From the IMG/VR virus record IMGVR_UViG_3300030202_001345, positions 858 to 64,857 of that record: a stretch of 64,000 nt of DNA; one strand, written 5' to 3'. A program made the translations under genes and the position numbers. The stretch is from a virus. Taxonomy: Duplodnaviria; Caudoviricetes. Below the pieces are notes generated by a model. It was not told the origin of the DNA, did not search any database, and worked only from the letters and a program-made list of their open reading frames with translations. This document shows, one piece after another, positions 8,822 to 58,934 of this stretch; within the stretch, counting starts at the first letter, position 1; every line of letters starts with the position of its first letter.

Positions 8822-11800
8822 TTATTCCCATTCGTCTATATTTAGAACTGATTCTTTTTTCTTTTTCTTTTTATTCCCTGTTGTATCTCTATCCATACCA
8901 AGTTCCCAGTCTTGATAACCCATAAGCATAGAGATTCTTTGCCACATTTCTACATCATCAAATAATGCTCCATCTATATTCTGAGCTTTTCTTAAGGCTC
9001 TGTCCATAGGCACGTTTGTGGTTGCAGATATTATATTTGCCAATGCCATATAAGCCTCGTTGTCTAAACTAAACTCCATGTCATTAAACGCTCCATACTC
9101 TGCGGATATAGCAGCGCTTCTTAATTTTCTTGCTTTTGAACCTATTGTAGGTGATACGTTTAACACTTCAAATATCGCCGCGTCATAAGCTTTCTTCCCG
9201 TCTTTTTCCTGTATTTGTTTTATTTTCATTAACGTGTTTTTAACCATAGATGCTGTAGCACCGTATAATCCCATACCTCTCAATAACGAGTCAGCCATAC
9301 CATTAGCAACTCTACCAGACTTAGCCATTAGCTTATCGTCTGTTTCATCATCGCCAAACGCAATACCAAACATAGCATTTTGTATAGCGTTAAACATAAG
9401 GTTTTGTATAAATCCATAGTAAACTATTTTAGAAGCGTTTGTTTTCCAATTACCTCTGCCGTTTACTAAATCTAAATAAGCTTTCTTTTGTATTCTCATG
9501 TACTGCATAGGTGTGTTAGCAAAAGCTAATATAACCCTACCTAGATCACTAGCTTGCTGTTGGCTTATTTTATCAGTTCTACTTGACTGTTGAGAGTTTT
9601 CAGCTATCTCTCTAAAATCTCTAAAAGCTCTTTCTTCTGCTACTTTTTCAGACAAACCTTTTTTCTTATAAGTGTTTAATCTGTTTCTATAAAACGTAGC
9701 ACCACCAGAAGCTATAGCAAAACTATCTGCATACCTAGTAAAAACAAAACCTTTATTTAACATATAGTTTATTAATCCTCTACCTCCACCGGACTCTGCT
9801 ATTTCTGATTCAGATATGTTTAACTTTAAACCATTACGTCTAGAGATTAAATAATCTGAGTTCATTAACTTTAAAAAGTCTTTAGAATATTGAGGCATGT
9901 TACCTAAAGCTTTACCAGCAGCCATAGGATTATTATCTGTCCAGTTAACAAAGTTAATAGATGATATTGTCTGCAACACAGCGGATCTAGTATTTAAGAA
10001 CATGATAGCACCTACTGAATTATTAATATAGTCAAGTACTTTGTTTTCTAAATTGTTTCTTGATTTTCTATTTCTACCAGTCTTCATTCTAGATATAGTA
10101 CCCTCTAAAGCATCTCTATAGCTTTTACCAAAAGCAGCTTGAAGTTTATTTAAATTAGCTTCACTAAATATTTGATTAACATTTTCTGTCCAACCATACT
10201 GCTCTAGATATTCAGATCTTTTTACATCTCTTAATAAATTTCTAGCATCTAAAGTTAAGTTACCACTAAGCCAATCAGCCTTAGGTGGAGACCAACCAGA
10301 GTTTTTAGTAGTTAATAACAATTGATCTGCAAACGCCTCGAGCTTAGGATTATCTTTAACTAATTTATTTAAGTCTCTTAAATCTGCTTTACTTAAACCA
10401 GGAACTTCTAATCCCATCTTAGTCCACATTCTAACTCTTACAGCTGTTTCGTTAGTGAAACCAGTGTCATTAGTCTTTTTAAGATTTTTAGGTACTACAC
10501 CTAAGCTTTTTTTCAAAGCTTTAATATCTTGCGCTAGCTTAACCTGATCTTTAGAAATCATTTCTTCTGCTTTAGCAAAAGGATCATTTAAATATTTCTT
10601 ATAAAACTCTTGTTGTTTTTCTCCAACCTTACCTTTACCTAATGTTTTATAAAGTAATCCCATAAAGTCTTCAGCACCAGGAGAAACTATGTAATCAAAC
10701 CTACCTTTTCCTCTGCCTACAACTTCAGCTTTTGCTCTACCAAATACTTTATCAGCACCGATGCCTGATTTATTTTGTATTATCTCGTTAAACGTTTTGT
10801 TTAGATCAACTTGTTGTAAAGCTAGTTGGACTTTGCTTTTTACGTCTATAACATCTAAAACAGATTTAACAGCTTTAACATTTTTTACAGCATCATCTAC
10901 AAAATAAAAATCATTATAACCTTTAGCAGCCTTATCTAATATCCAGTTTGACTTTGCTGTTGGGCTACCGTTTTCTAAACCAGTAATATTTTTAAGAGGT
11001 ATGTCAATACCTATTCCTTTTAAAAACTTATGAATAGCATTAGCTGACGCTTGAGGTCTTGCTGTTAACACAAACATGTTTTCATTACCAAATTTTCCTA
11101 TAGCTTTTTTAATTCTTGGAACTAGAGGACCGGGCTTCCCGTCAATTACTTTATTAAATTCAGAAAAATCGAATTTTGCTCCTTGAGCTTCTAAGGCTTC
11201 TGAACGCTTAGCAAATTCTGTAGCATTAAGTTTACCTTTCTTGCCATTAGGCAACGTGTAAAGTACGTTAGATTTAGATCTAGCTAATGTGTCATCAAAA
11301 TCGTATACACTTATACCCTTAGTTTCTTTTTTTAATCTTCTAGCTAAAGCTAAAGCCTTATCTCTATTAGACATGTTGTTTAGTAATTCAGATTTACTAA
11401 GATCAATTTGTGATAATGTGCCTGACTTTTTAGCTAAAGCTTTATCAGCTTCATATGACTGTTTAGTTTGTTTAGGATTTGCTAATTCATATTTAGCTAT
11501 TTCTACATTAGGCTTACTAGGTTCTAATGACAACCTACCCATAGCATCTTGCAGCTGTGGTACTTCTAATTTTCTAACTGATTGACCTAGCTTTTGTGCA
11601 TTTTGTTGCATTAGCTTGTCATAAAGAGTTTCTTTAAAACCACTTTCAACTGTTACGTAATCTTTTAATTGTTTTAAATCTAAAATCATACGAGATAAAC
11701 CAGCGGTATTAGTTGTGCCACCAAGCTTATCTATAACATCTAAATATTTTTTAAACGATATAACACCTTGATAATCGTTCATTATTTTTCTACCGTCTTT

Positions 11801-14800
11801 AGCCCACTTACCCTCTACAATAGCCTTAGCTTCTTGCATTGATTGTTCTAAAGAAGATTTTAAATGTTCAAGTTTCATTGTGCCTACACTACCTGTTTTT
11901 TTAACAGCCATAATAGGAACTAATTGTCTACCATAACCTTGTATAGTGCTGGAATTAGCCGCTGCTAAATCATATATAGTTCTTGCCCTTGCTTCAAACT
12001 CTGCTGGTGTTTTTGCATCATATAGATACTTTTGTTTAATGACGCCCATAGCATAATACACATCTGCCTTGTAAGCATTATCGCTTGCATTTATATATTT
12101 TTTAAGTGCGCTTAAGTCATTAGTATCAAAATACTTTTTTAAAGCATTTTTTTGTTGAGACTCAGTCATGAAATCTCCTGGTTTTATATTATCAAATACT
12201 TCACCTAAATATTTTTCACCAAGATTATCAATTATTCTTTTGTATTGGTTTTTACTAACAGGGCTTTCTGACATTAAATTACCATCTGTAGTTATTTTAG
12301 CACCATCAGGACCAACATTTCTACCAGTGCCTCTACTGCTACTACCAAACGATTGCAATAAAGTTTCTTTAGTTTTCAAAAAGTCTGGTAAATTTTTAGG
12401 ATAATATTTTGCTAAGTCTTCTATGTTTTTAAAGAAACCTTCTATTCTAGCTGTGTCAAATAAAGAAATATCACCTTGAGTGCTACGCATTGATTTGCCA
12501 GTTACTCCGTCTATAATGTTTTCTATCTTAACACCCTTTGGCGCACCACTAGCTTCAGCTATTTTCATATCAGCTTTAGGAGCTTTTTTAAATGTAGGTG
12601 CTTCTGTTTTACCACGAGCAGCCTCTGACTCAGACATTTTAATAGACTCAGTCTCTATGAACTTAGCAACATCTGGATATAATTTTCTAAATCCTTCTGG
12701 ATCTCTTGAGTAATTAGCAAAGGCTGTAAATACTTTTTCTATACTACTTAAAGTTTTTGGCTTGTTAGGCGCGTTTAAAATAACTTGAGCCATGCGTGGA
12801 TTTTTACCATCAGCCAAGTCTCTAATAACAGAATTAGATTCAGGTCCTGTACCTTGAGCTTCTCTAGCTACTTTGTTTTTTAATCCTCTAAAAACTAATT
12901 CAGTTAAACCTTTTATAGTTTGTACTTGTGCATCTCTATATAAAGCACCAGCTGGTTCTTTTAATATATCTTGTATATCTTTTATACTAAGATCTTTTCT
13001 TAATTCCCAGTTGCCACTATTGTTTTTTCTATATAATAATTTTTTAAGATTGTTTGGTACACCTGTTGCCTTGCCACCAGCTGTAAATCCTTCTGGTATT
13101 ATATTTAAAACAGCTTGCGCGTTTTTATTTAGATCCGATCTTAATTGTCTAAAACCTTCTATTGCAACTTTAGGTAAATTACGTTTTGGACTTGTAAACC
13201 ACTCAGCTAGTGGATTACCTTTTGAATCTACAATACCATATGTTTCAGCAAGTAACTTAGCTTCAGCTTCAGTTAAACGCAAAGACTTATAGGTTTCCTT
13301 AGACATGTCTCTATTACTTATATCCTTTTGCATTTCAGGTATAAGATCTTTTTGAACATCTATAGTTAAATCTAATTCTCTAGGATCTGTTTTCTTAACT
13401 CTAGGTTTTGGTTTAGGCGCGTCTAAGTTTTCAGCTTTAAAACCTCCAGTATCTGCAATACCCCTAATATTACTAATGTCTTCGTTAATACGCTTAGTCA
13501 TGTCTAACCCAGCTTCCTCGTATATTTCTTTTCTACGAGATTTAATTGTATTACCAAGGTATGTCATTACCTCTGTGCTACCGTCGTAGTTATCCAGCAT
13601 ACCAGTCTTTCTACCTTTTGCTACTCCTAAAAGTTGATATACTAAAACATCTGTTATAGCGCTTTGTTGTACGTCACCTAGCTTAGTACTAAAACCTAAA
13701 GCTTGATTTATTAAAGCTTGATTATCTTTAATTAAATCATAAATATCTTTACCGTAATCACCAGATTTGTTTTTAATATTTTCTGCTAATTCTCTATTAC
13801 GTTGTTGTTGAGTTTTTAAAAGCTCTTGACCAGCTTTATCTAAGTTTAATTTTTGTCCGGTTTGAGTGTTAATAAGATCGTATACTTTACCGCCTTTTTG
13901 TTTTTGTATTTTAATATCTTTAAAACGCTGTATCATACCAGGACTGTATTCACCAGATCCTACGCTTTGTCCATATCTACTTAAAAAATTTATTACTTTT
14001 TGTGGTGTGTTTAGATCTGGCAATAAGCCTTTCATTGGTGTGTCTCCAAGTGTTTTTTCTAAAGAACCATAAATATCTTGTACTATTTTTCCAAATACAT
14101 TATTAGTAACAATGCTTTCGTAGTTTTTAGGATCTCTTAATAAATCTACAACAGCAGCCGTATACTCTTCATTAAAACTATTTTTATCCTGTATTTTTTC
14201 GTATGCTTTTTCAACAGCACTTTTTAAACCTCCTTTTATATTTTTAATACCAAATTGCCAGTCTACACCGTTAAGTGTTTTAGATATGTTTCTTGCTAAA
14301 CTACCAGACAAGCCAACATCGTTTTTAAATTGTTGTCTCATCATTGTGTGAAATATCTCATGAGGCACTGTACCTGGAGTCATCTTGTTTACATTAACTC
14401 TAACCAAAGGTGGTTTGCTTCCTCTAAAAACAACTTCTGTTTTACCAGATTTATTTAATTTAAAATCAAAAGCAGGTTGATCTGACTTTGTAGCTTTTTT
14501 ATATTGTCTATTATACTTTTCAAACAAAGACTGAGTATCTGCCATTAAAATATCTTTGTTTAAATATCTCTCTCTGTTTTCTGATACCTTTATTTGTTTA
14601 CTTACTTCTTGATATAACTGTACCTTGTTTATGTATTGGCTATCATTTTTTTCAAGGTCACTTCTTTTGCCTTTACTTTCCATCTTCATAATGTCAATAA
14701 GTAATTCCATTTGAAGATTCTTTTTACCCTGCATTGTTAAAGCAAAATCTGCCTTACGAGACTTACCAGTTGCCATGTGGCTGAAACCAATTAAACTAAA

Positions 14801-17431
14801 TTGTATTGTTTCCATTAAAGCATGCTTAGCCCAGTCAGACATGTTACCATATTTTTCTTCGACAAATGTTTGCATGTCAGTTTGGCCTAACATAGATTGA
14901 ACCATTGCTTCTAAAGGCGCAGCAGTTTGAGCACCGGCAGCACCACCAAGTCCAGAGTAAAAACCTTTTTCTATAAAAGGATTAAAAACAGCGTACTCTC
15001 CTTTAAATATATTTGTTGGCAATACTTTTCTCATAGCAGCACCACCCAATACAAATCCAAAACCAGCACCAACCGGCATGTCAACACCAAACAAAGGATC
15101 CAACGCTGCCATTTTAGCTTCTTCTTGTAAACCTAATATACCTAAAGCTTGCAGCTTTTGAAAAGCACTACCACTTACCTGTGTTAAACCTTTTGATTTA
15201 GAATAAGCATCAACAGTCATTTTAGCTCTTCTCGCCCTAGCCGCAACAACTGCTTGTGATAAAGGTGTTACGCTATTTTTACCTGTTTTAGCTAAATACG
15301 TAACGTTTTTTAATTTACTTAAATATCTTCCTGTTCCTAAAAAATTTCCAGTACCACCTGTTAAATAAGTAACAGCAGCAAGTTCAGCAATCATAGGGAC
15401 AAAACCTCCCATACCGCGTACTAGTTCTTCTCCAAAACCTACTTCAAAAGCTTCTTCTTGTTCTGTGGTAAGCTCTATTGGTTTTTCACCTTCTTCTAAC
15501 GTAGAATTAATATTACTAATTAAGTCTTGAGTTCGGTTTAATACGTCTCTGGTAGTTTCTATTTCAATAGCCTCACCTCCGAAAGTAGGTAAAGCCTCAC
15601 CAAGACCTTCTACAAAATTCATTATCATGTTTCCGTTTAGCGCTAAATCATTTGCGCTTAGAGAACCTGGATCTACATTTAATAAATATAATTCTTTCCA
15701 GGCTTCACGTTGTACTTCTAATCTTTTTTGTGTTTCTTTAAAGTTAGCAACAGTTGCGTTTAAACCTCTAGCGTCTGGAGCACCTTCAATTCCTGATATT
15801 TCTTTTAAATCTTTTATTTCTTTATCAGCGCTATAGCCACCATAAAATTGATTGTAACCTTTTAATGAACCTAACCAGGGGTCAATACCTCTTGACAGCT
15901 TCATCATGTCTTTCATCTTAACACCTCTAACAACATAAAAATCTCCTCCAGTACCACTAGCTTCTAGGTTTGGTTTATAACCATACTGTTTTAATTTTTC
16001 TAATTGCTTTGAGAAACTTACTCTTATATCAAATTTAATATCGTTTATATCTTTTTTAAACTCTCCGTACTCCATGTTAAACACATTGTACTTGGATTTA
16101 ACAGTAGCAAAATCATTGTTCTTCATTATTTCTTGAAGATTTACTTTTGCTATATTATACTTATCGGTTAAGTCTTCTTCATCTCTTACTATTATACCAC
16201 CCTCTTCACCAACCGGTACTATTCTTCTTCTACCTGTTTCTAGATCAAATAAAAATTTAGTATTTTTACCAAATATTTCTTTCATCAATAGATCTCTTCT
16301 TGCTTCTAGTTTTTTGATTTCATTAACAGTGCCTCCATACTCTCCGTAACCTAAGTTTTGAAAGTTTTCATTAAGAGTTATTTCCTTGTTTATAAGTGAG
16401 GCATTTATACTTGCTAGTTCTTTTTCTTTAGGATTTACAATTTCTTGTATTTGTTGAATTTTTAAATTTTGTAAAGCTAGTGAGCTGTTTTCGTTCTCTA
16501 GTAATGGTAAGTATTGTTGCTCATAAACTCTATCAAAATTATCTTTTACTTCGTTTAATTGAATATCTTCTATTATGCTATTTACTTTTTTAGTTATTTG
16601 ATATTCAGGTAAATAACCACCATTATCTTTATATAATTGTGAAACGTTTTTTCTAACATATTTTTGAAAGTCAGCAGATTTAGATCCTTTCATTATACTA
16701 TTTATAGGCATATAAGAATCAACACTAAGATCTTCTTCATCTAAAAAATCTATTTTCAATTGAGGTATGTTAGTTAAAACTTCTTCTTCAAAAACTTCCA
16801 CGTTTTGATTAAATTGTTTTTGAGCCTCTGAATCAAAATTTAATTTTAAAAATTCGTTTATTTGCCCTTCACCAGTGTGAGTAGGTTTGTCTATTAAACC
16901 TACCGCTTGACCTAACCTTAATGCTAAACCGGTAGCATTAATACCACCACCTGGGGGTGATGGCCCTTCATAATACTCTGGGTTTAAAGCTACTTCTATT
17001 TTGTTTCCATTTAAAGCTTCTATACCAATTCTACTAGAACCTCTTTTTGTAAAGCTAAATCCTCCATTTTCTCCACCATACAATGTATTATACGCATTGA
17101 CTAAGTCCTGCGTATCTTGTGATTTAAAATCTGGAATTTCAATTATATCAGTATATTTTCTATCTTCAGGTATAACAACCTCTGTTTTACTAGGTGTTAC
17201 AACTTCCCACTCATCAATATTTAATTCCGATGAAGAGTTTTCCGAATCTGATTCCATATTCTCGGATGCTACCGGGGTTATTGGTGTTACAGTCGCATCC
17301 TCTGCCACAACACCTTCTGCTTTTTTTGAGTAACCTAGGTTAGCTGCTTCAGTTTCCCAATCGTCACCAAACATATCTTTTAAAGATTGTACAGTTACCT
17401 CGTTACCATCTCCATCTATGTATATTTCCAT
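8822..17431 (-). CDS. Giant multidomain virion/ejection (polyvalent) protein, 2869 aa
   Basis: Last in the ejection-protein block; zincin HEIFH..EE (~14350); sigma-region-2-like segment (~13500-13760); HAD phosphatase motifs DFDDT/LTAR/K/FVDD (~10830-11320); hydrophobic helical C-terminus. Confidence 0.75.
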   Translation of the reverse strand: MEIYIDGDGNEVTVQSLKDMFGDDWETEAANLGYSKKAEGVVAEDATVTPITPVASENMESDSENSSSELNIDEWEVVTPSKTEVVIPEDRKYTDIIEIPDFKSQDTQDLVNAYNTLYGGENGGFSFTKRGSSRIGIEALNGNKIEVALNPEYYEGPSPPGGGINATGLALRLGQAVGLIDKPTHTGEGQINEFLKLNFDSEAQKQFNQNVEVFEEEVLTNIPQLKIDFLDEEDLSVDSYMPINSIMKGSKSADFQKYVRKNVSQLYKDNGGYLPEYQITKKVNSIIEDIQLNEVKDNFDRVYEQQYLPLLENENSSLALQNLKIQQIQEIVNPKEKELASINASLINKEITLNENFQNLGYGEYGGTVNEIKKLEARRDLLMKEIFGKNTKFLFDLETGRRRIVPVGEEGGIIVRDEEDLTDKYNIAKVNLQEIMKNNDFATVKSKYNVFNMEYGEFKKDINDIKFDIRVSFSKQLEKLKQYGYKPNLEASGTGGDFYVVRGVKMKDMMKLSRGIDPWLGSLKGYNQFYGGYSADKEIKDLKEISGIEGAPDARGLNATVANFKETQKRLEVQREAWKELYLLNVDPGSLSANDLALNGNMIMNFVEGLGEALPTFGGEAIEIETTRDVLNRTQDLISNINSTLEEGEKPIELTTEQEEAFEVGFGEELVRGMGGFVPMIAELAAVTYLTGGTGNFLGTGRYLSKLKNVTYLAKTGKNSVTPLSQAVVAARARRAKMTVDAYSKSKGLTQVSGSAFQKLQALGILGLQEEAKMAALDPLFGVDMPVGAGFGFVLGGAAMRKVLPTNIFKGEYAVFNPFIEKGFYSGLGGAAGAQTAAPLEAMVQSMLGQTDMQTFVEEKYGNMSDWAKHALMETIQFSLIGFSHMATGKSRKADFALTMQGKKNLQMELLIDIMKMESKGKRSDLEKNDSQYINKVQLYQEVSKQIKVSENRERYLNKDILMADTQSLFEKYNRQYKKATKSDQPAFDFKLNKSGKTEVVFRGSKPPLVRVNVNKMTPGTVPHEIFHTMMRQQFKNDVGLSGSLARNISKTLNGVDWQFGIKNIKGGLKSAVEKAYEKIQDKNSFNEEYTAAVVDLLRDPKNYESIVTNNVFGKIVQDIYGSLEKTLGDTPMKGLLPDLNTPQKVINFLSRYGQSVGSGEYSPGMIQRFKDIKIQKQKGGKVYDLINTQTGQKLNLDKAGQELLKTQQQRNRELAENIKNKSGDYGKDIYDLIKDNQALINQALGFSTKLGDVQQSAITDVLVYQLLGVAKGRKTGMLDNYDGSTEVMTYLGNTIKSRRKEIYEEAGLDMTKRINEDISNIRGIADTGGFKAENLDAPKPKPRVKKTDPRELDLTIDVQKDLIPEMQKDISNRDMSKETYKSLRLTEAEAKLLAETYGIVDSKGNPLAEWFTSPKRNLPKVAIEGFRQLRSDLNKNAQAVLNIIPEGFTAGGKATGVPNNLKKLLYRKNNSGNWELRKDLSIKDIQDILKEPAGALYRDAQVQTIKGLTELVFRGLKNKVAREAQGTGPESNSVIRDLADGKNPRMAQVILNAPNKPKTLSSIEKVFTAFANYSRDPEGFRKLYPDVAKFIETESIKMSESEAARGKTEAPTFKKAPKADMKIAEASGAPKGVKIENIIDGVTGKSMRSTQGDISLFDTARIEGFFKNIEDLAKYYPKNLPDFLKTKETLLQSFGSSSRGTGRNVGPDGAKITTDGNLMSESPVSKNQYKRIIDNLGEKYLGEVFDNIKPGDFMTESQQKNALKKYFDTNDLSALKKYINASDNAYKADVYYAMGVIKQKYLYDAKTPAEFEARARTIYDLAAANSSTIQGYGRQLVPIMAVKKTGSVGTMKLEHLKSSLEQSMQEAKAIVEGKWAKDGRKIMNDYQGVISFKKYLDVIDKLGGTTNTAGLSRMILDLKQLKDYVTVESGFKETLYDKLMQQNAQKLGQSVRKLEVPQLQDAMGRLSLEPSKPNVEIAKYELANPKQTKQSYEADKALAKKSGTLSQIDLSKSELLNNMSNRDKALALARRLKKETKGISVYDFDDTLARSKSNVLYTLPNGKKGKLNATEFAKRSEALEAQGAKFDFSEFNKVIDGKPGPLVPRIKKAIGKFGNENMFVLTARPQASANAIHKFLKGIGIDIPLKNITGLENGSPTAKSNWILDKAAKGYNDFYFVDDAVKNVKAVKSVLDVIDVKSKVQLALQQVDLNKTFNEIIQNKSGIGADKVFGRAKAEVVGRGKGRFDYIVSPGAEDFMGLLYKTLGKGKVGEKQQEFYKKYLNDPFAKAEEMISKDQVKLAQDIKALKKSLGVVPKNLKKTNDTGFTNETAVRVRMWTKMGLEVPGLSKADLRDLNKLVKDNPKLEAFADQLLLTTKNSGWSPPKADWLSGNLTLDARNLLRDVKRSEYLEQYGWTENVNQIFSEANLNKLQAAFGKSYRDALEGTISRMKTGRNRKSRNNLENKVLDYINNSVGAIMFLNTRSAVLQTISSINFVNWTDNNPMAAGKALGNMPQYSKDFLKLMNSDYLISRRNGLKLNISESEIAESGGGRGLINYMLNKGFVFTRYADSFAIASGGATFYRNRLNTYKKKGLSEKVAEERAFRDFREIAENSQQSSRTDKISQQQASDLGRVILAFANTPMQYMRIQKKAYLDLVNGRGNWKTNASKIVYYGFIQNLMFNAIQNAMFGIAFGDDETDDKLMAKSGRVANGMADSLLRGMGLYGATASMVKNTLMKIKQIQEKDGKKAYDAAIFEVLNVSPTIGSKARKLRSAAISAEYGAFNDMEFSLDNEAYMALANIISATTNVPMDRALRKAQNIDGALFDDVEMWQRISMLMGYQDWELGMDRDTTGNKKKKKKESVLNIDEWE

Positions 17432-20470: not shown

Positions 20471-22042
20471 TTAATAAGCAGACTCTACATAGTTTGAAGA
20501 GACTGCGAATAATTCTTTTACGCCTCCAACATCTGTAGATGAATCTGTTTGAACTGTTACAGTACAGTAGTAACCTTTTATACCAGTCATGTCTGCACCA
20601 AAAACAATTTCACCCTCAGACGGTTGTGTATCGTTGACTAAGTTAGCATAGTATTTATTTTCTTTTCTATCAAACCCCGCGTACTCTCTTGGTAATGCTG
20701 GGTTAACTGTTCCAAAAACACTAAGATAATCTAAGCGATCTACAGCTTGTCCGTCCGCTGGATTTATTACGTATTCACCTTCGTAAAAACTACTAACTGC
20801 TGGAACGTAAACCGGTGGATTACCAACACCATCAAAGTATTTAACGTAAATATTATTAAACTCATCTGGTCCAGTAGCATCGCTTTGAAAAGCATAAACT
20901 TCCCAACCATTACTTCCTTCGTAATTAACTGTTTTAAAGTTTTTAGATAAACTAACTTTAGGGTTAAATATAAATGTTATTAGCGAGTCATACTGTCTGC
21001 CATAAAAATTAGCTCTTTGACCTTGGTTGTGTTGCCATAAAGTAGGCGCAGCATCTTTATAGTTACCACCACTTTGCTGTTCTTGCTCATAACCAATAGA
21101 ATAAAAATTACCTTTTAAACTAAACATTTCAATAGGTCTATAACTAAACCTACTAGTCCAACCTAAAACAGTTTCGTCAAAAGCTAATGTTTGATATCTA
21201 GGTGGATCATTAAGTAGGCCAGGAGTAGGGTTGCTATATTCTTGTAATGATATTACATACTGCTTTTGATACATATCCCAGCCGCCGAAAACTTTTCCTA
21301 GTTTAGCGTTGCTAAAGTTAACACTACCTAGATTATCTCTAAAATAATCAAACATACCATAGTTAGATATCTCTGTTATACCATCTCTTGATAATCTTAG
21401 CACGGCGTTTCTATCCATATCCGCAAAGTACTTTCTATAACCATAGACAGCAAAGCTTTCTGGATTTCTACTAATACCATAATTACCAGCATAAGGAACT
21501 ATTTGACCTATAACTAAATTAAGTTGACTAACAGGAACGCCACCACCCTCTGCAGTATATATAGCATCTTTATCTATTAAAGCTCTACTAACTTTATTTT
21601 CTTGAAATATAATTAAGTTAGTATCTTCTGCATATAGTTTTTGTATACTACCATTTGCTGGATCAGCTGCTTTGGTAATTTCTTCTCCAACACTAAATAC
21701 GTTTGTATCGTTAATACCTGTTCTGGAATTATATATACCAGAATAAATCATAGCATTACCCCTAATAGCCCCAAGAGGTTCGTTTTCAACTAAATAAGCT
21801 TTTACACCTAGAGAAACAGATGTGTTATTATAACCGCCTCTAATTCTAGATTCTTCAATAGCCCAATCATAACCGTCTGAACCTATAGTACTAATTCTAG
21901 GGTATCCACCTAAAACCTGTGGTATACCTCTTGAACCGTCCCATACAGGCTCTGTTGGCTGTGTTGGTTGACTATTTTCATAATCATTAACTTTCTTTAA
22001 TAAGAAGGTATTAAAATATTTTACTTCTATTATCGCAGGCAT
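20471..22042 (-). CDS. Tail stabilisation/nozzle protein, C-terminal-type part
   Basis: GSIQKL..YAGNYGISRNPESFAVYG..YFAD..RNAVLRLSRDGITEIS beta-propeller-like motifs seen in crAss-like stabilisation proteins. Confidence 0.7.
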   Translation of the reverse strand: MPAIIEVKYFNTFLLKKVNDYENSQPTQPTEPVWDGSRGIPQVLGGYPRISTIGSDGYDWAIEESRIRGGYNNTSVSLGVKAYLVENEPLGAIRGNAMIYSGIYNSRTGINDTNVFSVGEEITKAADPANGSIQKLYAEDTNLIIFQENKVSRALIDKDAIYTAEGGGVPVSQLNLVIGQIVPYAGNYGISRNPESFAVYGYRKYFADMDRNAVLRLSRDGITEISNYGMFDYFRDNLGSVNFSNAKLGKVFGGWDMYQKQYVISLQEYSNPTPGLLNDPPRYQTLAFDETVLGWTSRFSYRPIEMFSLKGNFYSIGYEQEQQSGGNYKDAAPTLWQHNQGQRANFYGRQYDSLITFIFNPKVSLSKNFKTVNYEGSNGWEVYAFQSDATGPDEFNNIYVKYFDGVGNPPVYVPAVSSFYEGEYVINPADGQAVDRLDYLSVFGTVNPALPREYAGFDRKENKYYANLVNDTQPSEGEIVFGADMTGIKGYYCTVTVQTDSSTDVGGVKELFAVSSNYVESAY

Positions 22043-45091: not shown

Positions 45092-45538
45092 TTATCTGTT
45101 TTTATCTTTATTTACGTTATATATAGATGTTATCATAACCTTGTCTATATATCTTTTACCTTTCATTATAGGGTTTCTTTTTTCACTTGTAGGTATATCC
45201 TCTAACCCAAGCATAATACGGTACACTCTTTTAATTAACTGCTTACACTTAAATGAAACTTTATAAATGTTGTATTTCTGAGTTGTTCGATTATTATGTC
45301 TAAAGACTTTTATCCAATCATCATTCAGCAACTTGTTCCAGCGTCTATTGTTCCAGCTAAAAGAGTATGTACCTATTTCAAAATCATGCCTGGTGAACAT
45401 GTCTAAACAATCGAGATATATCAAGAGTTCAAACTCTGCATCTGTTAAATTATAACTTTTGCACGCCCACTTTCGTATTATTCTATAATGTTTTAATAAA
45501 TTTAATTCTTTTAAATTATCCGGCTCTAATCTTCTCAT
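45092..45538 (-). CDS. Putative winged-helix (MarR-like) protein
   Basis: YNLTDAEFELLIYL..KLLNDDWIKV..YKVS pattern. Confidence 0.45.
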   Translation of the reverse strand: MRRLEPDNLKELNLLKHYRIIRKWACKSYNLTDAEFELLIYLDCLDMFTRHDFEIGTYSFSWNNRRWNKLLNDDWIKVFRHNNRTTQKYNIYKVSFKCKQLIKRVYRIMLGLEDIPTSEKRNPIMKGKRYIDKVMITSIYNVNKDKNR

Positions 45539-45801
45539 ATCACAATCACTACATCAGTATCTTTTACAATGCAATAATTTTCTCCATTTATATCTATTTT
45601 GTGATTAGCGCTTTTATCGTAGAATATTTCATCATTTTCTTTAATACCACAAACCACATCTCCTACACTTATAACTAAACCTTTATGGTATCTTATATCT
45701 ACCCTTTGTTGTTTAGCTAAAAGCAAACCACCTTTAGTTTTTTCTGTACCTTGTTTTTCTGGTTGTATTAAAATGTTTCTACCTATTGCTTTCATCTCCA
45801 A
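45535..45801 (-). CDS. groES: Co-chaperonin GroES
   Basis: KAIGRNILI, TKGGLLL mobile loop, GLVISVG, VKDTDVV. Confidence 0.9.
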   Translation of the reverse strand: MEMKAIGRNILIQPEKQGTEKTKGGLLLAKQQRVDIRYHKGLVISVGDVVCGIKENDEIFYDKSANHKIDINGENYCIVKDTDVVIVI

Positions 45802-47332
45802 TTCTTAAATTGTTAATTACACAATCTGTAGATAATATGGTAGTTGCAACTGATGCAGCGTTTTTTAAAGCGCTTTTAGTTACAAGCAAAGGATCTACTA
45901 TACCTTCGTTTATCATATTTACTTCATCACCGGTTATTACATTTATACCTGTGCCATTACCTTTTGGCTTATTGTAGTCAACTAAACCAGCGTTTTCTAA
46001 TATAGTAGTAAAGGGATATGTTAAAGCTTTTAATAAAGCCATATGCCCTTCTGATTTTTTTACTACAAAAAGAGAAGCGTCATATAAAGCAACACCACCT
46101 CCTGCAACTATACCTTCTTTAACAGCTGCTTTTGTAGCACAAATAGCATCTTCTATTCTATCACTTTTTTCTTTTAACTCTACTTCTGAGTTGGCTCCAA
46201 CTTTGACAACAGCCACTTTAGCGGAGAGACGAGCAAGGCGTTTTTCCAACTGAATGATTTCACCTGGGCTACCAGCTTCTTCCAATTGTTTTTTAACTTC
46301 TTTAACCAGCTCTTGAACCTCGCTATTAGATGTATCAACTTGTATAATAGTCTCGTTATCATTTGTACTGCTTTTTATACATTGTCCTAAATGCTCTTGT
46401 TGTATAATAGTTAAATCATCACCTAGCTCTTCATTTATAACCGTAGCTCCAGTTAATATTGAAAGATCACTAAGTGTGTCTTTTTTATTAATACCATAAG
46501 TAGGAGCATTAACAACGTTAATTTTTATATTTCCTTTTACTTTATTCATTGCAAGCGCTGAAACTACTGGTGGTTCTAAATCACCTATAATAAGTAGTGG
46601 CTTGTTATTTTTTATTACAAACTCTAAAACACTTTGTATTTGTCTAATAGTGTTTACTGGTGATTCAATAATTAACACCCAAGGGTTTTCTAACTCAGCA
46701 ACTCTTTTTTCTTTACTAGTAATAAAGTTATCATTTACAAGGCCTTTACCATACTGAACACCATCTACAATTTCTACGCTAGTTTCATTGTGTGTAGTTG
46801 GTTCCATTATAACAACTCCTGTTTCATTTACAGCTTTAAAAGCTTTACCTATTATTTTACCTAACTTTATATCGTTGTTAGTTGATATTGTAGCAACTTG
46901 ATCAATAATATCTCCAGATACTTTTATAGCGTTATCTTCTAAATATTCTATAACTTGATCAACAGCATCGTTAATACCTTCTTTTATTTCTCTTACACTA
47001 GCTTGTTTTTTACTAGCTTCGTGTAATATAGCGTGCGCTAGCACTGTTGCTGTTGTTGTTCCATCACCTGCTTCTTGCACTGTTTGTTTAGCAGCTTGCT
47101 TTAGCAGTGTAGCACCCATGTTTTCTACAGGGTCTAATAAAACAATAGACTCTGCAACAGTTACACCGTCTTTTGTTATAATAGGTTTTCCGTTTTGATT
47201 CTCCAGTATAACACACTGGCCGCTAGCCCCAAGAGTGGAGCTAACAGCTTTAGTGAGTTTATCTATACCGTTGAATATCTTTTCCTTGGCTTGATCACCA
47301 AAGTTAAGATTTTTTACAATCTTATCTGACAT
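45779..47332 (-). CDS. groEL: Chaperonin GroEL
   Basis: ITKDGVTVA, AGDGTTTATVLA, EDAICATKAAVKEGIVAGGG, GIVDP..VTKSAL. Confidence 0.97.
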   Translation of the reverse strand: MSDKIVKNLNFGDQAKEKIFNGIDKLTKAVSSTLGASGQCVILENQNGKPIITKDGVTVAESIVLLDPVENMGATLLKQAAKQTVQEAGDGTTTATVLAHAILHEASKKQASVREIKEGINDAVDQVIEYLEDNAIKVSGDIIDQVATISTNNDIKLGKIIGKAFKAVNETGVVIMEPTTHNETSVEIVDGVQYGKGLVNDNFITSKEKRVAELENPWVLIIESPVNTIRQIQSVLEFVIKNNKPLLIIGDLEPPVVSALAMNKVKGNIKINVVNAPTYGINKKDTLSDLSILTGATVINEELGDDLTIIQQEHLGQCIKSSTNDNETIIQVDTSNSEVQELVKEVKKQLEEAGSPGEIIQLEKRLARLSAKVAVVKVGANSEVELKEKSDRIEDAICATKAAVKEGIVAGGGVALYDASLFVVKKSEGHMALLKALTYPFTTILENAGLVDYNKPKGNGTGINVITGDEVNMINEGIVDPLLVTKSALKNAASVATTILSTDCVINNLRIGDESNR

Positions 47333-56988: not shown

Positions 56989-57018
56989 ACAAACAAAATA
57001 AATTATCTTTTGGATAAT
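56989..57018 (+). promoter_or_regulatory. Early promoter copy 5
   Basis: ACAAACA-N15-TGGATAAT. Confidence 0.8.
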
Positions 57019-57035
57019 AATATAAACAAAAAAAT

Positions 57036-57224
57036 ATGTATTGTAAATGCGGCACAGAAGTGCACCCTGTAAGATTAAAGCTAGGCTACAAAACTTGTAT
57101 GCCTTGCTCAACAACTCAAACGTACTCTTATGTACCTATCATCGAGCACAAAACAGGTAATACAATACAAATAGTTAGCCAAGAAGTAAGTGCATCAGTG
57201 CACAAAGCTTGGCGTAGAAAATAG
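57036..57224 (+). CDS. C4 zinc-finger protein (DksA/TraR-finger-like)
   Basis: CKCGTEVHPVRLKLGYKTCMPC resembles CxxCG.xI..xRL....xxCxxC. Confidence 0.55.
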   Translation: MYCKCGTEVHPVRLKLGYKTCMPCSTTQTYSYVPIIEHKTGNTIQIVSQEVSASVHKAWRRK

Positions 57225-57244
57225 CGCTAATTCGATACGGCGCG

Positions 57245-57426
57245 AGGCGGCGGCATACTGGTCACGTTAGTTGAAGGGTAAGGCGGATAAAGCTTATAGG
57301 CGATTACCGGAGCGATCACTAAGTGAAGCTCGACCGTGGTGCGTTATAAGTAGCTATAACTTCAGCAAAACAGAAAGAGCGGATAAATGACAATACTAGT
57401 TAACTACCAGTCCGTAACTGCTGCCT
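57245..57426 (+). ncRNA. Putative ~180-nt structured ncRNA of unknown class
   Basis: GC-rich intergenic; closing stem AGGCGGCGG/CTGCTGCCT; ACTGGT/ACCAGT; GTTGAAG/CTTCAGC; internal hairpins GAGC..TCAC-TAA-GTGA..GCTC and GTTATA/TATAAC. Confidence 0.6.
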
Positions 57427-57429
57427 TAT

Positions 57430-57528
57430 GGGCGTGAAATGGTTAGAAGCTAAGAACAGTAACGCACGGCGAAAGCTATGAGCAAACAACTGTGACGCTT
57501 AACGCAGGTTCGATTCCTGCCACGTCCA
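57430..57528 (+). ncRNA. tmRNA-TLD-like RNA 2 (mini-tmRNA without mRNA domain)
   Basis: Acceptor GGGCGTG/CACGTCC-A (G3-U70, A73); unstemmed D-loop AAATGGTTAG; AAGC/GCTT and ACAGT/ACTGT stems with a GAAA loop; T-arm GCAGG-TTCGATT-CCTGC. Confidence 0.7.
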
Positions 57529-57548
57529 CTAAATTAAATATAACAACT

Positions 57549-57929
57549 ATGACTAAATATGAATTAGAACAAAGGTATCTCGAAGCAGACTTTGTTTGGA
57601 ATATGCTAACTAAGTATGGCATACAAGAAATTACTACAATGCGACAAGCTAAAAATGATACAAGAGCTTTTAGAATGCCTACAGGTCAAATAATAGCGTC
57701 ATACAAATCAGGTATGGTACGTAGATGTGACAGTAGCGATAGAATATGGCAACTAAATCCTAAGTACAAAACTAAAACTAGATGGGTGTTTCTAACAGAA
57801 AATGGCTTAGAAACTAAAGAATATGAAACGTGGGCTAGAGCCGCTATATATTCTAGACTAGCTAGGTTAAACTTTATACTACAATACTACTTAAGAAATT
57901 ACAAACAAAATAATAAATCTATTGGATAA
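57549..57929 (+). CDS. Early hypothetical protein
   Basis: Real start at ATG 57549; the upstream extension in the ORF track overlaps the ncRNA. Confidence 0.6.
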   Translation: MTKYELEQRYLEADFVWNMLTKYGIQEITTMRQAKNDTRAFRMPTGQIIASYKSGMVRRCDSSDRIWQLNPKYKTKTRWVFLTENGLETKEYETWARAAIYSRLARLNFILQYYLRNYKQNNKSIG

Positions 57930-57930
57930 T
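57901..57930 (+). promoter_or_regulatory. Early promoter copy 6
   Basis: ACAAACA-N15-TGGATAAT; ATG only 5 nt downstream. Confidence 0.8.
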
Positions 57931-57935
57931 AATAT

Positions 57936-58858: not shown

Positions 58859-58932
58859 TGCGCTGTGGAGCAGTTGGTCAGCTCGCTAGGCTCATAACCT
58901 AGAGGTCGCAGGTTCGAATCCTGCTGGCGCAC
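58859..58932 (+). tRNA. tRNA-Met (CAT), initiator-like body
   Basis: Cloverleaf: TGCGCTG/TGGCGCA, D-stem GAGC/GCTC, CTAGG-CTCATAA-CCTAG, GCAGG-TTCGAAT-CCTGC; no encoded CCA. Confidence 0.9.
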
Positions 58933-58934
58933 CT

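Follow-up and report, generated by a model that had tools for sequence, protein, structure and literature searches.

The 64,000-nucleotide stretch of viral DNA analysed here (hereafter the window), which is nearly all of the 64.9-kb IMG/VR virus record IMGVR_UViG_3300030202_001345, contains at positions 57245–57426 a block of intergenic sequence lying immediately 5′ of a tRNA-like domain (TLD), the only part present of a miniature transfer-messenger RNA (tmRNA). Sequence comparison identifies this block as a member of a conserved family of structured RNAs that is not filed in Rfam, and indicates that the members share one fold, with a closing stem P1 of 9–13 bp, a helix P2 of 5–6 bp, a pseudoknot interleaved with P2, an insertion site and some 45 unpaired bases that hardly vary. 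The carriers of the family are marine podovirus-like phages that are kin to phages of Flavobacteriia. An earlier note, made from the window alone, had described the block as a multi-stem RNA that could be either the separated mRNA-like half of a split tmRNA acting in trans or an unrelated novel RNA. The comparative evidence confirms that the observation is more than chance and points to the second possibility, the element having a conserved, covarying and pseudoknotted fold with no match in Rfam.

What the earlier note had read from the letters is present in them. The block is GC-rich, with 46.7% G+C against 34.2% for the window, 54 of 6382 sliding windows of 182 nt being equally so. It is closed by the 9-bp stem that had been described, A57245–G57253 with C57418–T57426, which includes two G–U pairs and may be extended by a tenth pair, G57244–T57427. 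The repeat GCGGATAAA occurs twice, at 57283 and 57379, the second copy belonging to the conserved core and the first to a variable insert, while the nested stems and the two internal hairpins are located in this peripheral insert of 95 nt. The block ends at 57426, 3 nt 5′ of the start of the TLD as placed by the Rfam tmRNA model (57430–57531), and the motif ATAAAT-GAC-AAT and the ATG frame at 57387–57437 can both be found. Since its folding energy does not set the block apart, its reality was tested by comparison.

Conserved fold and covariation

Relatives were collected along three routes. An exact match to the 26 nt at the 3′ end of the TLD gave 59 loci in viral contigs; when 57225–57428 was compared by blastn with the sequence upstream in these loci, the outer parts of the element were recognised in ten, the middle being replaced by other sequence or absent. 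A pattern taken from the 5′ part of the element gave 34 viral loci, and one taken from its loop gave at least 118 metagenome loci. Among the matches listed, 114 distinct full copies from marine viral and metagenome contigs remained after the removal of duplicates and of 17 incomplete copies. Two alignments were used: A1, with 33 distinct copies aligned by MAFFT and fitted to no structure, and A2, with the 114 copies. The 5′-part pattern fixes the P2 5′ strand and TTAG, and the CATA columns also lie inside it; the loop pattern fixes the loop, CTAG and part of the P2 3′ strand. The parts of the element in the window are as follows.

57244–57253, + strand: P1 5′ strand (GAGGCGGCGG), partner 57418–57427
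57254–57257, + strand: junction CATA, invariant columns in A1 and A2
57258–57262, + strand: P2 5′ strand CTGGT, partner 57406–57410
57263–57270, + strand: CACG followed by TTAG (candidate P2.1 5′ strand); RNAalifold pairs TTAG with CTAG at 57396–57399
57271–57365, + strand: variable hairpin insert, peripheral, carrying the non-conserved first GCGGATAAA
57366–57377, + strand: A-rich junction CAAAACAGAAAG, at least 90% conserved in A1 and A2
57378–57383, + strand: pseudoknot 5′ strand AGCGGA, partner 57411–57416
57384–57405, + strand: near-invariant loop TAAATGACAATA-CTAG-TTAACT, including CTAG (P2.1 3′ strand, 57396–57399) and the short frames noted earlier
57406–57410, + strand: P2 3′ strand ACCAG, 99.6% of cells paired in the 114 copies
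57411–57416, + strand: pseudoknot 3′ strand TCCGTA, four of six pairs changing on both sides in the 114 copies
57418–57427, + strand: P1 3′ strand (CTGCTGCCTT), with covariation in both alignments
57428–57429, + strand: linker AT, 2 nt, to the TLD; 2–5 nt in copies abutting a tRNA-shaped gene, as read from the alignments

All copies have the same order of strands: P1 5′, CATA, P2 5′ (CTGGT or CAGGT), CACGTTAG, the variable hairpin, CAAAACAGAAAG, pseudoknot 5′, the loop TAAATGAYAATACTAG..AACT, P2 3′, pseudoknot 3′, AA and P1 3′. Covariation, which the earlier note had named as a check, is evident in both alignments, the stems being kept by compensatory changes in the 33 as well as in the 114 copies. 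In A1, 91.6% of the pair cells hold standard pairs, compared with 33–52% when the partners are slid by 1–3 columns; 11 of 23 pairs change on both sides, and the 61 cells that do so compare with a shuffle mean of 19.1, a count of 61 being reached in none of 500 shuffles. The larger alignment behaves in the same way, with 94.3% of pair cells paired (27–55% in the slid controls), 12 of 27 pairs changing on both sides and 207 such cells against 67.5 in shuffles, again with 0 of 500 reaching the observed number.

Each of the helices can be followed individually over the 114 copies. Seven of the 12 pairs of P1 have changed on both sides, and 91.2% of its cells hold a pair, with a G–G mismatch in the middle of the stem in 45 copies. 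The P2 pair 57259/57409 is UA in 60 copies, AU in 50, UG in two and something else in two, and the central pair of the pseudoknot, 57380/57414, is UA in 62, CG in 46, GC in five and AU in one, and is never unpaired. These two pairs also have the most mutual information in A1, that of the proposed pseudoknot being the highest at 1.43 bits, and no tertiary pairs beyond the proposed helices emerged from the mutual-information search. RNAalifold recovers P1 and P2 unaided and adds the 4-bp TTAG/CTAG helix, whose columns never vary, so that covariation speaks neither for nor against it. The loop at 57384–57405 is mostly invariant in A1, the members of which were chosen by other segments. As regards a possible palindrome or kissing loop, CTAG itself never changes, and most copies have A..T on either side of it; T..A, which keeps the palindrome, is found in three of 33, and A..G, which breaks it, in six of 33. 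A pairing of ACTGGT with the loop sequence ACTAGT was considered and rejected, as it is the ACCWGT strand that follows the T/A change in P2, the loop staying ACTAG.

Two positions of P1 are G–U pairs in 109 of 114 copies. On the opposite strand these conserved pairs would be C–A, and the fold must therefore belong to the + strand, which is that of the neighbouring genes.

Conserved core and peripheral insert

The insertion site is occupied very differently among relatives, by inserts of unrelated sequence that range from 0 nt (L009 and L053) to about 95 nt in the window. In the two minimal copies, which measure about 80 nt, CACGTTAG and the hairpin are missing and the A-rich junction is for the most part gone, being shortened to AAAAG; P1, P2, the pseudoknot and the loop are retained. 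As these copies do without a hairpin, the insert at 57271–57365 in the window is peripheral; its type is found in four of the 114 copies, those of the window, L298, L305 and L342. Contigs of relatives from RNA libraries skip 57277–57357 or 57286–57350, as well as the TLD insert at 57447–57500, and these skipped stretches are read as relatives with other inserts and not as splicing. The minimal form would be tractable for structure work.

Part of the insert is itself recurrent. A sub-module with the plan GCGATTACCGG-hairpin-CGAYCGTGGTGCG, at 57292–57345 in the window, is found as or within the insert of the element in L049, L069, L074, L076, L078, L080, L280, L291 and others, and part of it also stands before the 3′ half of a tRNA-like sequence in L036.

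Occurrence of the family

The window holds a single copy of the element, which the element model scores at 129.6 bits, the next match reaching 13.7 bits. Rfam, to which the earlier note had looked for a possible known family, has none that matches the element: Rfam 15 (4227 models) was run on the window at gathering thresholds, on 57100–57650 at E up to 10 and on 11 related loci at E up to 1, and returned only tRNA matches and sub-threshold tmRNA matches, with no family for the element or for the other modules described below. Against 50,697 phage records, blastn gave nothing at 1e-5 and, at E up to 10, only matches of the T-arm to tRNAs. In the closest deposited genome, MW202828.1, the best match to the element model scores 13.6 bits and the TLD was not found. 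A scan of bacterial and archaeal genome contigs with a 17-mer yielded one true copy among the 120 matches listed, the rest arising by chance, and this copy (L167) lies on a 629-bp contig of a metagenome-assembled genome of Flavobacteriales. No description of the element was found in the literature searched. Six sample numbers of element loci are absent from supplements 3–6 of PMC10690425, which cover 8495 candidate RNAs from IMG/VR, while archive files 1–2 of that source may list the motif.

Genomic context

The context of the copies was classed by pattern, after which 14 unclassified copies were inspected. In 103 of the 114 the element stands 2–5 nt 5′ of a tRNA-shaped gene, which is a TLD in 92 and a tRNA-Met-like gene with a CAT anticodon in 11; ARAGORN confirms tRNA-Met in five such copies of the first set. 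In these 103 copies it is thus placed like the small stable RNAs of tRNA operons, on the same strand as the tRNA-type gene and directly against it, and the strand of the element is always that of the adjacent tRNA-like gene. In nine further copies another structured module follows, and in the remaining two (L280 and L372) there is nothing tRNA-like on the 3′ side, only an AT-rich spacer and then an open reading frame (ORF). In L282 a hairpin and a run of seven T lie between the element and the TLD.

The association is loose in both directions. The element is missing from 49 of the 59 TLD loci, which have other modules or none in its place, and in five records with the element before tRNA-Met, which are 29–68% complete, neither the tmRNA model nor a T-arm pattern revealed a TLD; the same search succeeds on the window's own record. 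Neighbouring modules and tRNA-like genes are spaced by 0–8 nt.

Proposed role and alternative explanations

The reading that we prefer, and that we regard as evenly poised between right and wrong, is that the element is an autonomous small RNA, with a fold conserved on the + strand, that is released from its neighbour by RNase P. It would be transcribed together with the flanking small genes in one precursor. The 5′ ends of tRNAs and tmRNAs are produced by RNase P acting on their precursors, and a cut by the host enzyme at the 5′ end of the tRNA-shaped RNA, 2–5 nt downstream, would leave the 3′ end of the element just behind P1 and protected by this helix; that one processing cut might release both the element and the TLD, as the earlier note had supposed, is plausible. 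The freed RNA, closed by P1, would act by itself, most likely by binding a protein or another partner through the invariant loop and junctions, and would be one of several interchangeable accessory RNA modules in the region. Autonomy is suggested by the two copies without a tRNA-like gene, by the nine that precede another module, by the hairpin and T-run that follow the element in L282 and by the 49 of 59 TLD loci that lack it. The element is distributed patchily among close relatives, and other modules can take its place, which suggests that its role is accessory and not central; host takeover or counter-defence is a guess at what that role may be.

Several observations weigh against this proposal. 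The folding energy of 57245–57426 has a z-score of −0.82, with 43 of 200 shuffles folding equally well, and that of the element together with the TLD has a z-score of +0.29. Since the search patterns fix columns, the invariance seen there is partly by construction, and since the copies are related by descent, the covariation counts are not independent events. The RNA-library contigs, which come from relatives with 90–95% identity, cover the region without showing transcript ends or proving transcription; four RNA runs and one possible-RNA run of marine origin contain 5–11% of the sampled words. A cut by RNase P would account for the 3′ end alone and not for the 5′ end, and with a stem that stops 2–5 nt short of the cleavage site RNase P might be impeded instead of helped. 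A search of the window for antisense targets of the invariant loop, with at most three mismatches, gave 24 matches where 22.1 were expected, and thus no partner or target.

It is unlikely, but to be reckoned with, that the fold is instead a cis-acting leader that controls or assists how the tRNA-shaped RNA behind it matures or folds; P1, for example, could decide the access of RNase P, maybe in response to a bound factor. The linker of only 2–5 nt to a TLD or tRNA-Met-like gene in 103 of 114 copies would suit such a leader, as would an aptamer-like architecture of closing stem, pseudoknot, invariant junctions and peripheral hairpin, and a precedent is offered, according to PMC9004378, by the predicted glutamine riboswitch joined to the tmRNA gene of phage Melnitz. 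A leader is, however, difficult to reconcile with the 11 copies that are not against a tRNA-like gene, two of them alone before an ORF, with a P1 of 9–13 bp, which is long for a switching helix, and with the 49 of 59 TLD loci that manage without the element, several TLDs directly following the upstream ORF; the same element, moreover, stands before two kinds of tRNA-shaped RNA. A self-cleaving ribozyme of a new class, which by analogy with the theta ribozymes, which resemble that of hepatitis delta virus (HDV), would cut the multi-module precursor at one of its own ends, has a slim chance of being the answer. Numerous invariant unpaired bases surround the pseudoknot, and some activity must separate modules and tRNA-like genes that are only 0–8 nt apart, but no ribozyme family of Rfam matches at E up to 10 in the window or up to 1 in the 11 related loci, the linker to the downstream gene is constant neither in length nor in sequence, and the order of helices (P1, P2, hairpin, pseudoknot 5′, P2′, pseudoknot 3′, P1′) is not HDV-like. 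According to PMC10879173, theta ribozymes do show phages of Bacteroidota placing ribozymes against tRNAs, but on the 3′ side, whereas the element is 5′. Taken more broadly, the idea of an active RNA device as opposed to a passive one, be it a sensor gating RNase P, a self-processing ribozyme or an aptamer toolkit, is rather improbable. If it were true, the fold of a sensor would gate RNase P access and so time the maturation of the TLD or of tRNA-Met during infection; a ribozyme would represent a new self-processing class that dissects an array of structured RNAs; and in the widest form the region would be a toolkit of swappable RNA aptamers on or beside a tRNA-like scaffold, aimed at host factors. 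The opposite possibility, that of a passive protector, in which the stable fold stays on the upstream mRNA after the RNase P cut and blocks 3′ exonucleases, is improbable as well: in many loci the element directly follows the stop codon of an upstream ORF of 62 residues, and the long P1 would end 2–5 nt from the cut, but about 45 near-invariant unpaired bases and a conserved pseudoknot far exceed the needs of a protective hairpin, and what lies upstream is in many cases another RNA module or some other ORF. Very little speaks for a feature of the DNA that is without function as RNA, for instance a recombination hot spot or a small mobile palindromic element; the modules of the region are mosaic, nested and swapped between relatives, as such a feature might have them, but the helices are kept by compensatory changes, the conserved G–U pairs would be C–A on the other strand, and the element always shares the strand of the adjacent tRNA-like gene.

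The idea that the element is a separate mRNA-like domain, acting in trans with the TLD-only tmRNA and templating a short tag, is scarcely credible in the light of the comparison. Its attraction lies in a phage TLD that has no coding part and in TAA-AT-GAC, which we take to be like the stop-like triplet found a few bases before a resume codon; after TAAAT, 29 of 33 copies have a frame of four codons that gives DNTS, DNTR or HNTS before a stop. In the other four, however, this frame reads through for 15–50 codons, and its constancy elsewhere follows from that of the loop sequence itself. The ATG frame, MTILVNYQSVTAALWA, fares no better: its ending ..LWA, which arises because the frame runs into the fixed GGGCGTGA of the TLD, occurs in only nine of 33 copies and gives way to other endings where P1 has changed, the ATG is missing in three of 33, and the candidate codons lie inside the pseudoknot loop. 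The tmRNA models match the TLD side alone, RF00023 at 57430–57531 and RF04321 at 57504–57567 (12.7 bits), with nothing in 57244–57427 at E up to 10. No conserved pairing between the element and the TLD was found; the only complement, of 8 nt, joins 57339–57346 with 57460–57467, in inserts that differ among relatives. About as many 8-nt complements of this kind are expected by chance in 600 nt. The two RNAs also occur apart, with 49 of 59 TLD loci lacking the element, none of the five records that have the element before tRNA-Met (29–68% complete) having a TLD, and no TLD beside the element in L280 and L372. The frames not being conserved, the first of the two possibilities raised in the earlier note does not hold, and with it goes the appealing but unsupported notion of a tmRNA split the other way round.

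The tRNA-like domain and neighbouring RNA modules

Immediately downstream of the element, and outside it, lies the following feature.

57430–57531, + strand: TLD-only mini-tmRNA; Rfam RF00023, 34.3 bits (gathering score 47), E = 3.5e-12

The RF00023 model is matched at both ends, with 55 nt replacing the usual 326. ARAGORN does not call this mini-tmRNA; the sole RNA gene that it and Rfam at gathering thresholds report in the window is a tRNA-Met at 58859–58933. No SmpB gene was found in the virus record. The TLD-only form is widespread, the 59 viral-contig loci (L002–L060) being identical over their last 26 nt, while its internal insert is mosaic and highly variable, from less than 30 to about 110 nt in the sequences read. 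Further TLD types begin with GGGAGTGA, TTGGCATGA or GGGGGTGA.

The same RNA modules are met both inside the TLD (L004, L025, L059) and free-standing upstream of it (L023, L041, L046), a further instance being L052 and L058 compared with L038, L016 and L060. Modules are also nested within each other, and in this the region resembles a cassette site for structured RNAs. A second type of module (L007, L022, L030–L032, L034, L043, L047, L050 and L051; L005, L012, L018, L019 and L057) is closed by the stem GAGAGG/CCTCTC and also has a helix, YTGGAA/TTCCAG, a variable hairpin, GAAAG and a pseudoknot-like helix of 7 bp in which covariation can be seen by eye. Its inner hairpin bears TATAAGTCAGGG...GTAAATGACGTGCAT, and this inner motif is also found alone behind a 13-bp stem. 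The element model scores the L005-type modules at 23.6–25.1 bits (E about 0.001–0.002) and the L007-type modules at 14.7–15.3 bits (E 0.26–0.36), values to which the TLD start included in the model may contribute; kinship of this type with the element family is marginal, the shared architecture having been seen by eye only.

Another recurrent module consists of two conserved halves, GACGAGTAGCTTAA and ACATAAGTGAATAGC, around a variable hairpin. It is present in L005, L006, L009, L026, L040, L054 and many of L061–L094, often against the 5′ end of the element's P1, and has no Rfam match. A T-arm-like piece, GAGGTTCGAATCCTC followed by ACTAGTTACA, stands upstream of the TLD in L012, L018, L025, L036, L219, L010 and L028 and may be a second, partial tRNA-like RNA; in L010 this region gives one weak and partial tmRNA match in Rfam, of 14.5 bits. 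A conserved stretch of about 80 nt that starts with CAGACTGGTGAAATTAGTCACACGTTGC, on the 3′ side of the TLD or tRNA-Met in L009, L055, L062, L065, L066 and L068, may be a further module; it has no Rfam match in L009.

The phage and its neighbouring genes

The window encodes a portal protein, a large terminase, GroEL, GroES, a ribonucleotide reductase and a primase-helicase. Other features of the window are the following.

8822–17431, − strand: ORF of 2869 residues, to which no family was matched
20471–22042, − strand: protein of 523 residues with a crAss muzzle C-terminal domain
45535–47332, − strand: GroES and GroEL

The terminase shares 62% identity with its counterpart in an uncultured freshwater podovirus, whose genome MW202828.1 is the closest deposited one by this protein, and about 44% with that of Flavobacterium phage elemo. 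The terminase search matched 87 records, 86 of them at less than 60% identity, with phages of Cellulophaga, Tenacibaculum and Maribacter among them. Because these relatives are phages of Flavobacterium, Cellulophaga, Tenacibaculum and Maribacter, the host is probably a marine member of the Flavobacteriia.

The element lies in a run of small ORFs on the + strand, between one of 62 residues (57036–57224) and one of 126 residues (57549–57929). In related loci the RNA region usually has the former, which carries a four-cysteine motif, CxC...CxxC, as its upstream neighbour; neither Pfam nor PHROG gives a match for this ORF, and its nearest named Atlas cluster, zf-dskA_traR at 0.88, is a lead only. 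The sequence TTGGATAATAATAT occurs at 57010–57023 and 57922–57935, each time shortly 5′ of an ORF start, and similar motifs (GGATAATA) precede ORFs in related loci, so that it may be a phage promoter or translation signal. On the + strand, from the flanking ORFs to the element, no sigma-70-like promoter and no terminator were found, a result of little weight since the promoters of Bacteroidota lie outside that consensus.

Significance and comparison with known systems

Phage-encoded structured RNAs are few and mostly of unknown function, and the present element has unusually clean comparative support from 114 variants and a pseudoknot that covaries. Marine viromes commonly contain it, and its setting is a hot spot of swapped and nested RNA modules, which also sit as inserts in a tmRNA-like domain whose coding part has been lost. 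Flavobacteriia are major degraders of algal blooms, and the partner or action of the element could show how their phages use RNA in infection; tRNA supply, ribosome rescue and host takeover are guesses.

With tmRNA's mRNA-like domain, or the coding piece of two-piece tmRNA (RF00023, RF04321), the element shares its place beside a TLD, a pseudoknot and a short frame behind a stop-like triplet, but it lies upstream of a complete TLD and not between or after its halves. There is also a likeness to the core of RNase P RNA, the topology of which is built on P1-P2-P3-P4: in both a closing stem is followed by the 5′ strand of P2, a variable hairpin, an A-rich junction ending in GAAAG, the pseudoknot 5′ strand, the P2 3′ strand and the pseudoknot 3′ strand, and the element adjoins a substrate of RNase P. 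The element is nevertheless 75–180 nt long, where RNase P RNA exceeds 200 nt, a search with E up to 10 brings no match to an RNase P model, and the conserved regions (CR-I and CR-V around P4) are not recognised, so that the likeness is a resemblance of topology only.

HDV-like ribozymes, which have the cleavage site at their 5′ end, form a nested double pseudoknot in the order P1-P2-P3-P1′-P4-P2′, from which the helix order of the element differs, and no Rfam model of the HDV type matches it. The theta ribozymes of this kind adjoin tRNAs in gut phages of Bacteroidota and Bacillota, lying on the 3′ side of the tRNA, with a cleavage site that falls at the tRNA 3′ end, as stated in PMC10879173, whereas the element lies 5′ of the tRNA-like gene. 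The two are alike as structured and pseudoknotted RNAs a few nucleotides from a phage tRNA-type gene, the window phage having, in addition, a crAss muzzle domain.

In phage Melnitz a glnA-type glutamine riboswitch is predicted inside the two-piece tmRNA gene, according to PMC9004378. Both are aptamer-like RNAs joined to the tmRNA gene of a marine phage; the element, by contrast, matches neither the glnA nor the Downstream-peptide model, has a much longer P1 and differs in host group and in type of tmRNA. Nor is it placed like a riboswitch, since a tRNA-shaped gene and not an ORF follows in 103 of 114 copies and P1 is long. Phage T4 encodes species 1 and 2 (RNAs C and D), small stable RNAs that are co-transcribed with its tRNA cluster. 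Like these, the element is a phage-encoded structured RNA packed on the same strand against tRNA genes, with ends that plausibly come from tRNA-processing enzymes; its fold, host range and modular nesting are, in contrast, specific to the family, and the two are likened by description alone. The nearest counterparts in kind are the small stable RNAs of phage tRNA operons, such as T4 RNAs C and D, together with the aptamer-like RNA of Melnitz.

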